A DNA stretch of 63,130 bases, filler included, from Reclinomonas americana ATCC 50394 (taxonomy: Eukaryota): NCBI GenBank assembly GCA_048213135.1. It is 5 parts of 3 records of this genome, joined end to end, with 100 filler letters (N's around TTAATTAATTAA, not from the genome) between each part and the next. Parts side by side here need not be neighbours in the genome. Positions count along the whole stretch, not along the records: positions 17,158 to 32,661 come from PS015265.1; positions 32,762 to 59,969 come from PS015265.1; 3 more parts are not named here. The stretch is one strand, 5' to 3'. The notes below the pieces were generated by a model. It was not told where the DNA came from and searched no databases. It worked only from the letters and a program-made list of their open reading frames with translations. Shown here piece by piece: positions 31,296 to 59,969 of the stretch; positions within the stretch are counted from its first letter, which is position 1, and the number at the start of each line of letters is the position of its first letter. The position numbers were made by a program, and so were the translations under genes.

Positions 31296-32215
31296 TGTAT
31301 CGTCGTCGTGTTCGGTTTTGTGAAAGGGGGGACATCCCAAGCTTGCAAGGCGGAATGATGAGCAGAGGAAGGTACACTCTCCCCTCACTGCATGCTCTCA
31401 CTCACTCTCCTTCTCACTCAGCTCATACTCCTCATCTGGCACCCCTCCGACCTCCCTCACCGACCACTCCTCTTCCTCCTCTGCTACTGCTCCTCCCTCT
31501 TCCTCCTCACATGGAGAGCAAGTCGAGGCCAAGGACGAGTGCCTAATGCGCCTATCAAAGGCCATGCTGGGTCCTTGCACGCGTGCTCAACCAACTTCGG
31601 AATATCGACGTGTTCGGTTTTGTGAGAGGACACCCCAACTCGCAAGAACGAAGGAATGATGAGCAGAGGAAGGTACACTGCACTGTCTCTCTCCTTCACG
31701 CACACCCCCACTCACTCACTCGCACTCTCTTTCTCACGCACAGCTCCTCCTCATCCTCGCGCATCCCACCAACCTCCCTCACTGACTCATCCTCCTCTGC
31801 TGCTGCTCCTCCCTCTTCCTCTGCTGCTGCCTCACATGGAGAGCAAGTCGAGGCCAAAGACGAGTGCCTTATGCGCCTATTAAAGACCATGCTAGGTCCT
31901 TGCACGCACAACAAAGCTTCGGAATATCGACGTGTTCGGTTTTGATGTAGAGGACACCCCAAGCTCGCGACACGGAATGATGAGCAGAGGAAGGTACACT
32001 GCACTGTCTCTCTCCTTCACGCACACCCTCACTCACTCACTCACTCTCCCTCTCACACAGCTCATCCTCATCCTCTCGCATCCCACCCACCTCCCTCACT
32101 GACCCATCCTCCTCTGCTGCTGCTCCACCCTCTTCCTCCTCACATGGAGAGCAAGTTGAGGCCAAAGACGAGTGCCTAATGCGCCTATTAAAGGCCATGC
32201 TGGGTCCTTGCACGC
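31296..32215 (+). repeat. Tandem triplication (about 310 bp) of the 5' end (upstream region, exon 1, intron, start of exon 2) of the HEPN-STAND-TPR gene
   Basis: GTGTTCGGTTTTG...ATGATGAGCAGAGGAAG|GTACACT...CATGGAGAGCAAGT...GGTCCTTGCACGC occurs three times; only the third copy continues into a long reading frame. Confidence 0.85.
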
Positions 32216-32538
32216 GTGCGTTGCAGTGCAAGCTGGAGCAGGTGCTTCCGAGGTTTCTGGAGGAGGCGCGTGAAAGCGATGGAGTGGTGCATGATGCGGA
32301 GTGGTGCAAGGCGCCGGGGGAGAGGGATAAGCGGTGAGTGAGTGAGGGAGAGGGAGAGAAGGGAGACAGGAGGGAAGAAATGGAGTGATTGAGTGAGTGA
32401 TTGAGTGTGCGAGTGAGAAAGGAGAGTGTGTGAGAGAGTGAGAGAGAAGAGAGAGAGAGAGAGGGAGACCGAGTGAGTGAGTGAAGGCGTTTGCTCGTGC
32501 TTCCTTTCCTTCTTTCTCACTCACTCACTCACTCATTC

Positions 32539-32576
<38 letters not shown>

Positions 32577-32849
32577 ACACACGACACTACTACTACTACC
32601 TACCTACCTACCTACCTCCACCTACCCTACCTACCTACCTACCTACCTTACCTACTACCTTNNNNNNNNNNNNNNNNNNNNNNNNNNNNNNNNNNNNNNN
32701 NNNNNTTAATTAATTAANNNNNNNNNNNNNNNNNNNNNNNNNNNNNNNNNNNNNNNNNNNNACGTACGTACGTACGTACGTACGTACGTACGTACGTACG
32801 TCGTCGTACTCTCGTCTCTCGTCTCTCTCTCTCTCTCTCTACTCTCTCA

Positions 32850-32909
<60 letters not shown>

Positions 32910-56820: not shown

Positions 56821-56862
<42 letters not shown>

Positions 56863-57029
56863 GTGCGCGTTCGTCTGTGCGTAATCGCAACTCGCGATTC
56901 ATGACACTCACAGGACATCTCTCAGTCACACGCGCGAGTGAGCGAGGCACACGCACACTCGCGTGAGAGAGTGTGTCTCTCTGTCTGTGCTCTCTGTCTC
57001 TCTCTCTCTCTCTGTGCAACAGCGAAGCA

Positions 57030-57092
57030 ATGGAGAGATACATCAAGAGCAAGATCCTTCTCGGAGAGGGAACTTATGGATATGTGTACAGG
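57030..57092 (+). pseudogene. Orphan CDK-like first exon (copy 3)
   Basis: Same MERYIKSKILLGEGTYGYVYR plus GT donor. Confidence 0.7.
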
Positions 57093-57418
57093 GTACTGTG
57101 TCTTTCCACACTCCTAACAAACACACACACAGTTGAGGTAGAGAGAGAAAGAGAGGGAGAGTGATTCAGAGACAACTCGCATGCATTCTGTGATCAATCG
57201 ATCAGCGCAATAGTCACTCTCACTCTCTTATCTCACACTCCCTCACACATCGTTCCCTCATTGAATCCAACTCACTTACTGACTTTCGCACATCTCCCAT
57301 CTTTTTTTCGTCTCGCATTTCCACACACCGTTCGTCTCTCACACTGATTATACACTCGACACTCACAATGCTGAGCTCTCTCCCCCTCCCCCTCCCTCTT
57401 CGCAAGCTTGCTTTTCAT

Positions 57419-59969
57419 TTAAAGTTCCAGCGTAAAGTTGCCGCACGCCTCACGCACCGCCCGCATCACCTCGAGCACCTCATGTGCCGTCGGTCGATCA
57501 CGTCGCAGACTCATGCATCGCATGCCGATAGCGAACATGGCTTCAGCAATGCGCGGTGTCCACTCCACGCCATCCGCGCTGTCCACCAGCTCCATGACAC
57601 GCAGCGAGGCCGGCGATTCGTCCCACTCCAGCGACCACTCGCCGACTGCCACCACCGGCTTGCCCGTGACCAGCTGTACCAGCACCACACCCATGCTGTA
57701 CACGTCGTGCTTGGGCAGTGGACGACGGGCGCGATGAGCAAGCGGGTCCATGTAGTCCAGAGTACCGGCAACCGCAGTTGACTGCACAAGGAAAAAGTGA
57801 GAGATCGCGACAGAGAGAACGAGTGCAAGGCAACAAACCTTGCCGCCGGCAATCGATCGCGCAATACCAAAGTCTCCGAGACAGGGCTCGAAACGGTGAT
57901 CGAGAAGCACATTGGCGGGTTTGATGTCGCGGTGCACCACCTCATTCTGCGAGGGAGTGGTGAAATGAGAGGCGCAGTACATGTATACAAATCAGAAGGG
58001 AAAAAGAGGACAGTACATAGGAGGAAGCAGGGAGACGCGAGAGACTGAGGCAACAAAAAGTTATACAAACTGCAGCATAGAGAAAGAGAGTGCGAAACAG
58101 AAGGAATGACGACTTGCATACATATCAGAAGGAAACACAAGAGACAGTGCATAGGAGGAAGCAGGGAGACACGAGAGACTGAGAACAAAAGATATACAAA
58201 ACTGAGCATAGAGAAAGAGTGCGAAACAGAAGGAATGGCGACTTGCATACAGATCAGAAGGGAACGGAGGAGACAGAACACGGTAGGGGTCACGGGAGAC
58301 CGAGATATCAAAAGAGATTTGAAACTGCAGCATAGAGAAAGAGAGAGCGAAACAGAAGGCAAGACGACTGGTGAGAAACAAAGACTGCCATCTTTATCGA
58401 ACACACACCTTGTGCAAGAACGCTACAGCCTCAGCCAGTCCGAGACCAATCTGCACTCGTTGTACAACAGAGAGTGGTGCACGACCGACACGAAGCAGCA
58501 GGAGGTCCTCCAAGTTTGGAACTCTGTGCGCTTTCGCAGTGAGACAACGATGGAGGAAGGGAGAAGTGGAAAGATAAATACGCACTGCAAGGCCTTGTAC
58601 ACGAGACATCGAGCCTTGTCGTCGCCCACAGAGTAGCCAACAAGAGGCACAATGCGACGGTCACGCAGGCGTCCGAGAGTGGCCACCTGTGGGAAGGAAT
58701 GAGAAGAGGAGAAAGAGAGAGAATGAAGAGGAGAAAAGGACAGACCTCACTCTCGAACGACTCCATCGTCCACGGTGCATCGGGGTCGAGCACTTTGATG
58801 GCCACGTGCATCTCGCGAAGCAGAGTGATAAAAACGGCACCCTGACCACCCTCGCCGACCTTCAATCGTGGAGAGAACGAGTCGGTGGCGTGCACAATCT
58901 CCGGCCACTCGAAGCGCTGCACGGCAGTGTCGACTGTGGATTGAAAAGGAAGGGAAAGATGGAGAATAAATGAATGGTTGGAGAAGCACGAGGACAACAA
59001 GAGAGATGCAAAGACCTTGGGCGAGGAGGAGCTCCTGTCGAAGTTGGGAGAGAAGACAGTCTTTCTCTTCCAGTTGCTGCTGCACGATGATCAGCTGAGC
59101 AGCAAACTCGTCCTTGTCACGCAATGCCACAGTCAACTGGGATTCCAGCTGAGCGTGAGCTTGCTGCCAATCTGCATGGGCTCGCTGCAGTTGCGCGACT
59201 TGCTGCCGACTGTGGGCATCAGATTGCTGCAACTGTCCGTTCGCTTGCTGCAGTTGCGCAATGGTAGCGTCCCGTCGCTCCACCTCAACGCGAAGCTGTG
59301 CAACTTGTTGCTGATCTTTGGCATGCGCCTCTCGCAACTCAGCGCTGGCTTGCTGCAGTTGAGCCACGATATCTTCGTGCTCTCGTCGCTGCCGATCCCA
59401 TTCGTGCTGCTGTTGCTGTCGCTCCTGCTGTGACGCAGCGAGATCGCGTCGGAGTTGGGCGATGAGCGCGTCCTTGTCGGTGGCGTCGTCAATCACCTGC
59501 GCACATGCAGAGTGCGAGTACACACACATGATGAACAACGCGAAAGCACAAGCAAGATGACACAGTCTCCCACCTGGCGTGGCGGAACTGCATGTTTTCG
59601 CAAACAAAGAAACACGCATAGAGGAGTGTGAGTGGCAAACAACTCGAATCAACCATCGGTACAAGACGACACGAAGATCTCACCTGCTGCTCGTGGTGGA
59701 AGTGGTGGTGAAGAGGGAGGGGAGATTTGTGGCTGTCGTTGTTGTGGGCGTGCTGGCTCTGCGTGTTCTTGCATGGTGAACACAAGCAGAGAAAGATGCA
59801 TGGAGAAGTGTGTGCAACACGAAAATGACATCACACCTGCAGGTGGCTGTGGTGGAGGTGGAGAGGTAGATTGTGGGGGTTGTTGGCGTGGTGGAGTTAT
59901 TTGTTGCTCCTCAACGAGGTGGTCAAGCAACTCGGCAACTTGATGATTGCCCTTGTCGCGTGCCCACTG
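57419..59969 (-). CDS. Ankyrin - Pro-rich - coiled coil - IRAK/Pelle/RLK-type kinase (unit A, 5' truncated by gap)
   Basis: End of the last ankyrin repeat (QWARDKGNHQVAELLDHL), coiled coil and full kinase; activation segment STAVAGTLDYMDP. Confidence 0.85.

Follow-up and report, generated by a model that had tools for sequence, protein, structure and literature searches.

The 63,130 nucleotides of Reclinomonas americana ATCC 50394 analysed here (assembly GCA_048213135.1; referred to below as the window) contain, in tandem on the minus strand between positions 45298 and 59969, four paralogous genes, g1 to g4, that are predicted to encode proteins composed of ankyrin repeats (ANK), a coiled coil and a protein kinase domain. 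Among these paralogues the ANK groove diversifies strongly and the kinase domain is under purifying selection, a combination that recognition modules in biological conflict would be expected to show. Our overall explanation, to which we give an even chance, is that g1 to g4 form a young tandem family of cytosolic ANK–coiled-coil–kinase recognition proteins engaged in such conflict, either of an immune type or in self/non-self recognition. On the plus strand the same locus holds a gene for a P-loop NTPase with TPR repeats, which we call the NLR-like gene, followed by a fumarylacetoacetase gene (FAH) and an orphan open reading frame (ORF). The layout that an earlier note on this DNA had described, with a STAND-TPR gene, FAH, an orphan gene and a series of ANK–coiled-coil–kinase genes, was thereby recovered, the latter genes being four in number.

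Architecture of the tandem kinase genes

The genes g2, g3 and g4 are tandem copies that follow an identical nine-exon plan and have introns that can be aligned; their paralogy was established by tblastn. Each consists of an ankyrin-repeat domain, a proline-rich linker, a coiled coil and a kinase domain resembling those of IRAK and the receptor-like kinases (RLKs). The profile, PDB and structure searches reported here and below were run on contiguous single-exon translations, not on spliced products. Pfam family Ank_2 was matched with E-values of 4.3e-21 (g1), 7e-18 (g2) and 7.6e-18 (g3), and the exon ORFs of the kinase genes matched Pkinase with E-values from 6e-18 to 3e-07. The ANK exon of g4 is mostly lost where the gene abuts a run of N's at 59970. 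The coiled coil spans some 155 residues, and the stretch of about 158 residues that was scored contains just two prolines or glycines; its heptad score, in a home-made test applied to g1 and g2, was reached by none of 200 shuffled sequences.

The kinase domains of g2 to g4 carry the motifs GEGGQG (GxGxxG), VAIK, HRDIKPAN and DFG, with an RLK-like lead-in to the N-lobe. Among the PDB sequences, a lectin RLK was the best match of the C-lobe exon (E-value 8.4e-07), accompanied by BIK1 and 26 IRAK4 sequence sets and also by SYMRK and BRI1; six of the seven matches of the N-lobe exon were to LysM-RK, IRAK1 or CERK1. The assignment of the domain as IRAK/RLK-like is drawn from these best PDB matches, whose E-values (8e-07 to 4e-04) are modest. 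The label IRAK/Pelle, which the earlier note had attached to these proteins, suits the kinase domain by its best PDB matches but not the remainder of the protein: no death domain occurs among the Pfam matches of g2 to g4, the N-terminus being formed by the ankyrin repeats, and the glutamate of the APE motif is replaced by leucine. Comparison of the C-lobe exon of g2 with longer proteins gave no match among 1041 candidates.

Diversification of the ankyrin groove

The ratio of nonsynonymous to synonymous substitution rates (dN/dS) amounts to 0.06-0.09 in the kinase domain (g2, g3 and g4; 286 codons) and to 0.15-0.32 in the coiled coil of the same three genes, and reaches 0.60-1.03 in the ANK domain (g1, g2 and g3; 163-164 codons). 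For a finer comparison within the latter domain the five repeats were put in register by hand on the conserved threonine or serine at repeat position 6. Repeat positions 2, 3, 5, 13 and 14, which on the basis of the designed-ankyrin literature we take to form the binding groove, are variable in 18 of 22 cases, versus 20 of 87 positions elsewhere (odds ratio 15, Fisher p 5.7e-7). For the three pairs of sequences, the groove has a dN of 0.68, 0.53 and 0.65 over its 22 codons, as compared with a dN of 0.075-0.108 and a dS of 0.137-0.145 in the remaining ANK exon. The aligned introns diverge by 0.12-0.175 overall and the intron adjoining the ANK exon by 0.13-0.17. Because amino-acid change in the groove thus proceeds at three to five times the local neutral rate and the rest of the repeats, including their frame, is conserved, the ANK groove is, as judged from these rates, under positive selection and not under mere relaxation of constraint. 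The description of the kinase genes as diversified, which had been given in the earlier note, therefore applies strongly to the groove, the kinase domain being under strong purifying selection.

A chimeric member of the family

The protein encoded by g1 is predicted to have the order ANK, proline-rich linker, coiled coil, a helical module that contains the sequence RHRVSH, and kinase. What g1 has in common with the other members is the ANK exon (76-80% amino acid identity to g2 and g3), the pair of linker micro-exons and the initial third of the coiled coil. Beyond this shared head the identity to g2 and g3 is 43% in the coiled coil and 29% in the kinase, and g1 reads as a chimera in which the head of the family has been joined to a different tail. 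The kinase of this tail carries the motifs VAYK, HRDLKPQN, DFG and APE. The PDB matches of its kinase exon were to the generic serine/threonine kinases CDK1, Nek7, PKR and IRE1 and those of its C-lobe exon to RIPK1, ABL, CTR1 and MLKL; by these comparisons the domain is TKL/RIPK1-like and other than the kinase of g2 to g4. The protein ends 33 residues past kinase subdomain XI.

Within the intron at 45990-46500 (minus strand), which follows the exon with the HRD loop of g1, the end of that exon recurs as three degenerate tandem copies in which changes break the frame. These copies indicate a local duplication within the gene.

The NLR-like P-loop NTPase–TPR gene

The predicted product of the NLR-like gene starts with a helical module of about 175 residues that contains the sequence RNKIVH, and continues with a charged helical linker, a P-loop NTPase, a helical region of about 400 amino acids and repeats of the TPR_10/12 type. 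STAND NTPases are defined by a Walker A motif, a Walker B motif and a strand of the form hhhhT(S/T)R. Here the Walker B motif lies about 100 residues past the Walker A motif and the hhhhTSR strand about 25 residues further, a spacing that is usual for STAND proteins. The TPR tail was matched by TPR_12 (E-value 1.9e-16; 60.5 bits with a cut-off of 30.1) and TPR_10 (E-value 2.5e-15) of Pfam, and it is of the kind by which STAND proteins are recognized, namely C-terminal repeats that form a superstructure. In a homologue search with the ORF of the last exon, 417 of 8000 scored candidates had an E-value of 0.001 or less, all of them on the TPR part alone and covering 23-60% of the query; the top TPR match was a protein of the composition EAD1-NB-ARC-DUF7779-TPR. 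The order of the motifs makes it fairly likely that the gene encodes a switch of the STAND/NLR type.

The non-TPR residues 45-430 of the last exon found no match among 8000 scored candidates of 356-1134 amino acids, and an AF2 single-sequence model of this exon, where a STAND protein would be expected to have a winged helix and a helical arm, was all-helical with a low mean pLDDT of 40.8. One intron of the NTPase region contains a run of 872 N's. On the plus strand between 31303 and 32215 there are three tandem units of about 300 bp that are 81-87% identical; the last unit holds the start codon of the NLR-like gene together with the beginning of exon 1, and the upstream units contain decayed forms of this exon start.

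Candidate HEPN modules

Both the N-terminal module of the NLR-like protein (RNKIVH) and the module between the coiled coil and the kinase of g1 (RHRVSH) contain a sequence of the form of the HEPN catalytic motif, which is Rx4-6H, often with an asparagine after the arginine. HEPN domains are all-alpha bundles of four to six helices and about 110-150 residues in which the motif stands at the start of a helix; the modules considered here are spread over two to three exons. These sequences are seldom produced by chance: among 20000 shuffled versions of residues 1-200 of the NLR-like protein 1.15% contained RN...H, and among those of the g1 region 2.2% contained R[NH]...H. Moreover, R[NH]xxxH occurs at two places only in the five modelled proteins, and these are the two proposed modules. 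Searches of a protein-language-model Atlas placed the NLR exon nearest to the named clusters Csm6-HEPN, Apea-HEPN and Ymh (0.75-0.79), and nine of its ten best named matches belong to the HEPN clan. For the g1 exon the Atlas returned DUF4559 (0.89), clusters with 10% (0.88) and 55% (0.79) HEPN_DZIP3, and HEPN_Swt1 (0.77). Motif and Atlas results together make it somewhat probable that the g1 module is an RNase of the HEPN type, and they tip the balance slightly towards HEPN for the N-terminal module of the NLR-like protein.

Gene models and genomic neighbourhood

The window has a G+C content of about 55% and 18 runs of N's that sum to 5413 bases. Introns, as read from the DNA, are of the form GT…AG, with frequent GTGAG donors and CT-rich bodies. 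The GT-AG introns, the GTGAG donors, the CT-rich introns and the N runs together identify the DNA as a draft assembly of a eukaryote. A pattern of 44 N's, 12 bases and 44 N's occurs four times (17058-17157, 32662-32761, 59970-60069 and 61669-61768) and looks like an artefact of assembly or masking. No Rfam match was found across the window.

The Pfam scan covered 222 stop-to-stop ORFs of at least 75 amino acids between 31000 and 60500. Spliced models were built with an exon-chaining script, after which each junction was fixed by inspection of the surrounding sequence in all three frames; g2, g3 and g4 are nearly identical, and their exon ends were transferred through an alignment of their DNA. 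In the final models every intron is GT-AG, and the frames are open over 1083 (NLR-like gene), 851 (g1), 676 (g2), 673 (g3) and at least 525 (g4) amino acids. In the NLR-like gene the chosen frame has a higher codon score than the other two frames for eight of the nine exons, and in g1 for 11 of the 12; the putative HEPN modules, whose four exons were outside the training set, share in this support. The junction 33945/34517 of the NLR-like gene, with its weak GTGCTG donor, is uncertain. A GTGAGT donor at 33977 was considered as the end of exon 3 of this gene and dropped, being out of phase. The donors of g1 at 46555, 46856 and 45470 (minus strand) read GTTGCG, versus the GTGAG that is usual elsewhere in the window, and represent either a weak donor class specific to this gene or mis-modelled junctions. 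The small terminal exon of g1 was chosen since it restores the conserved arginine of kinase subdomain XI. The coordinates of all features are listed in Table 1.

Table 1. Features of the locus and of the remainder of the window, in window coordinates
Feature	Position	Strand	Basis
g1, 12 exons, 851 amino acids	45298..49471	-	exon model
g1 ANK exon	48901..49471	-	Pfam Ank_2; homologous exons in g2, g3
g1 candidate HEPN module, exons 47514-47784 and 47250-47451	47250..47784	-	read directly
RHRVSH motif of g1, residues 474-479	47404-47421	-	read directly
g2, 9 exons, 676 amino acids; ANK exon 52540-53113	50186..53113	-	exon model
g3, 9 exons, 673 amino acids; ANK exon 56122-56686	53806..56686	-	g2 exon map via DNA alignment
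g4, at least 525 amino acids, g2-like architecture	57419..59969	-	paralogue alignment
NLR-like gene, 9 exons, 1083 amino acids	32179..39050	+	exon model
RNKIVH, candidate HEPN Rx4H catalytic motif, residues 128-133	33805..33822	+	read directly
P-loop NTPase exons of NLR-like gene	34907..37095	+	motifs read directly
Walker A GAGGSGKS exon	34907-35070	+	read directly
Walker B LLLLDN exon	35224-35446	+	read directly
VVIVTSRR sensor-like strand, helices after	36843-37095	+	read directly
TPR_10/TPR_12 repeats, C-terminus of NLR-like protein	38469..39050	+	Pfam
Fumarylacetoacetase (FAH), housekeeping	39452..43228	+	FAA_hydrolase_N and FAA_hydrolase, four exon ORFs
Orphan ORF, 392 codons from ATG	44457..45635	+	ORF; no family match
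SDHA exons	25285-31183	+	Pfam
GBP-type GTPase ORF	681-1373	+	Pfam GBP, E-value 1.6e-09
CDP-alcohol phosphatidyltransferase ORF	9573-10100	+	E-value 2.6e-07
Fibronectin type III ORF	16436-17056	-	E-value 8e-12

The stop codon of the NLR-like gene and the end of g1 are 6.2 kb apart, with FAH, which is interrupted by a run of 860 N's, lying between them; SDHA is located directly upstream of the NLR-like gene. The earlier note had described the cluster as interrupted by FAH and one orphan gene. FAH was borne out by Pfam, but the orphan is an ORF without a family match in Pfam and with a mean pLDDT of 29.9 in an AF2 single-sequence model. Its 3' end is antisense to the last two exons of g1 (45298-45668, minus strand), and at least the 3' third of the ORF is probably non-coding.

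Searches for a related locus on which conservation of the neighbourhood could be judged (protein representatives, homologues and metagenome contigs) found none; two scans of metagenome contigs gave 175 and 231 pattern matches, of which none was confirmed. A functional coupling between the NLR-like gene and the kinase genes appears rather unlikely. At a distance of 31 kb from the NLR-like gene, the GBP ORF matches the C-terminal half of the GTPase domain of guanylate-binding proteins. The GBP family is often tied to cell-autonomous immunity.

Proposed mode of action

The mechanism that we infer for g2 to g4 would start at the ANK groove, which is diversified by selection, the coiled coil and the kinase being conserved. 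The variable groove would bind a changing partner, and the coiled coil would join two or more chains in a dimer or oligomer. Binding would then shift the geometry of the assembly and so let the IRAK/RLK-type kinases switch one another on and send a signal. The same head in g1 would drive the candidate HEPN module, and if this is indeed a HEPN domain two Rx4H sites would pair to cut RNA; the TKL-type kinase could serve as a second output or as a regulator. RNase L, Ire1 and Csm6 cut RNA by means of paired Rx4H sites, and in RNase L and Ire1 it is dimerisation that pairs the nuclease halves. As to the NLR-like protein, the TPRs may sense a ligand and hold the protein off, whereas the ligand and NTP together might induce an oligomerisation that brings the N-terminal modules together, where paired HEPN domains would cut RNA.

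Counter-evidence and alternative explanations

Several results weigh against this explanation. All gene models are predictions from DNA alone, and the catalytic competence of the kinases is not certain because of the leucine in the APE motif of g2 to g4 and the degenerate glycine loop of g1. Four exon pieces of the NLR-like gene and g1 gave no match to HEPN profiles of Pfam, PADLOC and NCBIfam at an E-value of 10 or less, a test that has low power for the NLR-like gene, where it was made with single exons of 51-65 amino acids. The PDB sequences likewise contained nothing HEPN-related for the exons of either gene; the best matches of the HEPN and NTPase exons were irrelevant ones (flavin reductase, XPF, acetyltransferase and designed repeat proteins). 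The generic form Rx4-6H was present in 98% of the shuffled sequences for the NLR-like protein and in 73% for g1, and is to be expected by chance. A Smith-Waterman comparison of the two putative HEPN modules with each other gave a score of 38, which was reached by 143 of 1000 shuffles and is not significant. Within the Atlas, recognition of the NLR exon was low (1690), two unnamed viral clusters ranked first for the g1 exon (0.91), three of the ten best named matches of the latter agree with the best one, and for both exons every named family stayed below the mark of 0.9.

The STAND assignment faces similar counter-evidence. STAND profiles of Pfam were matched by the Walker A exon below threshold only and amid unrelated P-loop families: nSTAND3 with an E-value of 0.016 (15.3 bits, cut-off 27.2), NPHP3_N with 0.02 (15.5 bits, 24.8), NB-ARC with 0.044 (13.5 bits, 23.5) and NACHT with 0.15 (12.3 bits, 26.7). 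A local hidden Markov model of NB-ARC plus DUF7779, built from five sequences among the TPR matches whose domains had been confirmed, scored the NTPase region at -2 bits, under the shuffled decoys, and a local phmmer comparison of this region with 120 TPR proteins gave no match. The stretch of 388 residues that separates the NTPase from the TPRs had no relative at an E-value of 0.001 or less among 1,835,955,588 representatives. The earlier note had called the gene HEPN-STAND-TPR and had assigned HEPN to g1 as well, with profile and structure searches as the check on HEPN and STAND. The P-loop and the TPRs of that reading stand, whereas STAND was reached at the level of the Walker A motif and below threshold, and HEPN not at all in the profile libraries and the PDB, all in searches with single exons; for HEPN there remain the two motifs and the weak leads from the Atlas.

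These negative profile tests, together with the chance frequency of Rx4-6H, would suit a more prosaic explanation, in which the genes serve ordinary signalling, the RxxxxH sequences arose by chance in helical linkers, the NTPase is an ATPase of the scaffold or chaperone type, and the ANK pattern reflects relaxed constraint with patchy gene conversion. The selection analysis is open to such a view, as it comprises three ANK sequences in a register that was set by hand, the dN/dS of the whole ANK domain is about 1 and not clearly above it, and positions 2, 3, 5, 13 and 14 are, to our knowledge, the least constrained ones in any ANK family. In addition, the paralogous introns of g2 to g4 (50546-59836, minus strand) show divergences of 0.02-0.48 per intron. 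This mosaic, together with a dS of 0.16 in the ANK exon versus 0.44 in the exons for the kinase, is suggestive of gene conversion among the copies of the tandem. Nevertheless, a groove dN of 0.53-0.68, which is three to five times the neutral level (dS 0.14; introns 0.12-0.175), goes beyond what relaxed constraint alone can produce. Decay is further contradicted by the purifying selection on the kinase and the rest of the ANK exon and by the intact frames of all four kinase genes, and the strict form R[NH]xxxH is rare by chance (1-2%). We regard the ordinary-gene explanation as unlikely.

The selected groove would fit equally well in proteins with which a parasite or predator attacks its host or prey, since a diversifying groove on a conserved enzymatic tail suits effectors as much as receptors; parallels exist in ankyrin effector families and in the polymorphic secreted kinases of some parasites, and ankyrin-rich secretomes are reportedly discussed for gall-forming protists. 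However, the modelled N-termini start at the ANK cap and showed no hydrophobic, signal-like stretch on reading (no signal-peptide predictor was run), and a role as a weapon is in our view highly improbable. Quite unlikely, too, is the integrated defence system that the earlier note had in mind, in which sensor, kinases and RNase are kept together by their joint function in the manner of Pto/Prf. All its parts lie inside 28 kb, R[NH]xxxH is found in the NLR-like protein and in g1 but in none of the other three proteins, selection diversifies the ANK groove, and the window includes the GBP-type GTPase ORF (681-1373). Yet proximity is the sole link between the parts: SDHA precedes the NLR-like gene, FAH and the ORF separate it from the kinase genes, no homology was detected between the two RxxxxH modules, and the searches yielded no related locus with such a neighbourhood. 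Families that have expanded may have come to lie side by side by chance. A bolder version holds that g1 is an independently assembled, permuted effector of the RNase L type (ANK, coiled coil, HEPN, TKL kinase) within a diversifying ANK–IRAK-like family and forms one immune module jointly with a HEPN–STAND–TPR receptor. This is decidedly improbable in our judgement; if true, it would bring IRAK-type signalling, NLR-type sensing and RNA cleavage by HEPN together outside animals and plants.

Comparison with known systems

The earlier note had considered the combination as undescribed, but HEPN at the N-terminus, together with STAND or NACHT and TPRs, is in print. According to PMC3710099, HEPN with STAND/NACHT and TPR is known from the DZIP3/hRUL138 family of animals and Capsaspora, DZIP3-type HEPN is fused to NACHT, TPR and ANK, and a bacterial HEPN–STAND–TPR–S1 protein has been described. 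In the pearl oyster, as stated in PMC9646362, more than 50 NACHT proteins carry a DZIP3-type HEPN at their N-terminus; some of them have a TPR tail, and in these HEPN domains an asparagine usually stands right after the arginine of the motif. The order of the NLR-like protein (RNxxxH module, P-loop NTPase, TPR_10/12) is like that of bacterial HEPN–STAND–TPR proteins and of the DZIP3-type HEPN–NACHT proteins, which occur with TPR, LRR or WD40 in oyster, cnidarians and Capsaspora (PMC3710099; PMC9646362), and the expected logic would be alike as well, with sensor repeats, an NTP-driven switch and an RNase effector. Unlike them, the NLR-like protein has no exon-level profile match to PF18738, NACHT or NB-ARC, its central 388 residues are without relatives, and its host is a microbial eukaryote and not an animal. 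NB-TPR genes are reported from bacteria, brown algae and Klebsormidium (PMC7145615). The NB-ARC–TPR and NACHT–TPR proteins that occur in bacteria, fungi and algae share with the NLR-like protein a P-loop NTPase that is followed by TPR_10/12 repeats, but the NTPase of the latter fits neither the NB-ARC nor the DUF7779 profile. Literature searches on two combinations, HEPN with NB-ARC, TPR and NLR among unicellular eukaryotes and ankyrin repeats with Pelle/IRAK among protists, found nothing on point.

As regards g1, the closest parallel is formed by RNase L and Ire1: the combination of the KEN domain with kinase and ankyrin repeats is described in PMC3710099, and g1 likewise combines ANK, a kinase and a candidate Rx4H module, of which the coiled coil could pair the two halves. 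In the KEN family, however, the nuclease follows the kinase, whereas the candidate module of g1 precedes it. Moreover, g1 has no match to KEN in Pfam, and its kinase keeps the K, HRD, DFG and APE motifs.

The kinase exons of g2 to g4 match best, among the PDB sequences, to chains of the IRAK/Pelle and RLK-RLCK type such as IRAK4, BIK1, CERK1 and Pto. In contrast to these proteins, g2 to g4 lack a death domain, a transmembrane segment, LRR or LysM domains and a start of the myristoylation type, and have N-terminal ankyrin repeats and a 150-residue coiled coil instead. TKL kinases fused to ankyrin repeats are found in RIPK4/ANKK1 and integrin-linked kinase, and plant kinase-fusion resistance proteins combine a kinase with a variable, quickly evolving recognition module. 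Compared with these proteins, g1 to g4 differ in the order of the domains and in the long coiled coil.

We do not assign the locus to any named family; the single-exon searches gave no profile match above threshold to HEPN, NACHT/NB-ARC or KEN. What seems to be new is the family of ANK–coiled-coil–IRAK-like kinases with a diversifying groove, its permuted ANK–coiled-coil–RxxxxH–kinase member, and the extreme degree to which the NLR-like protein has diverged. In very large protein collections neither the central region of the latter nor the exons for the kinases have detectable close relatives, so that the lineage counts as effectively unsampled. Should the ANK-kinases be recognition proteins, they would represent a compact, receptor-like diversification outside plants and animals, in which g1 would be a natural 'domain swap' that rewires one sensor head to another output. 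And should the RxxxxH modules prove to be genuine HEPN RNases, then both the HEPN–STAND–TPR receptors of bacteria, animals and Capsaspora and the parts list of RNase L would extend to a poorly sampled protist lineage.

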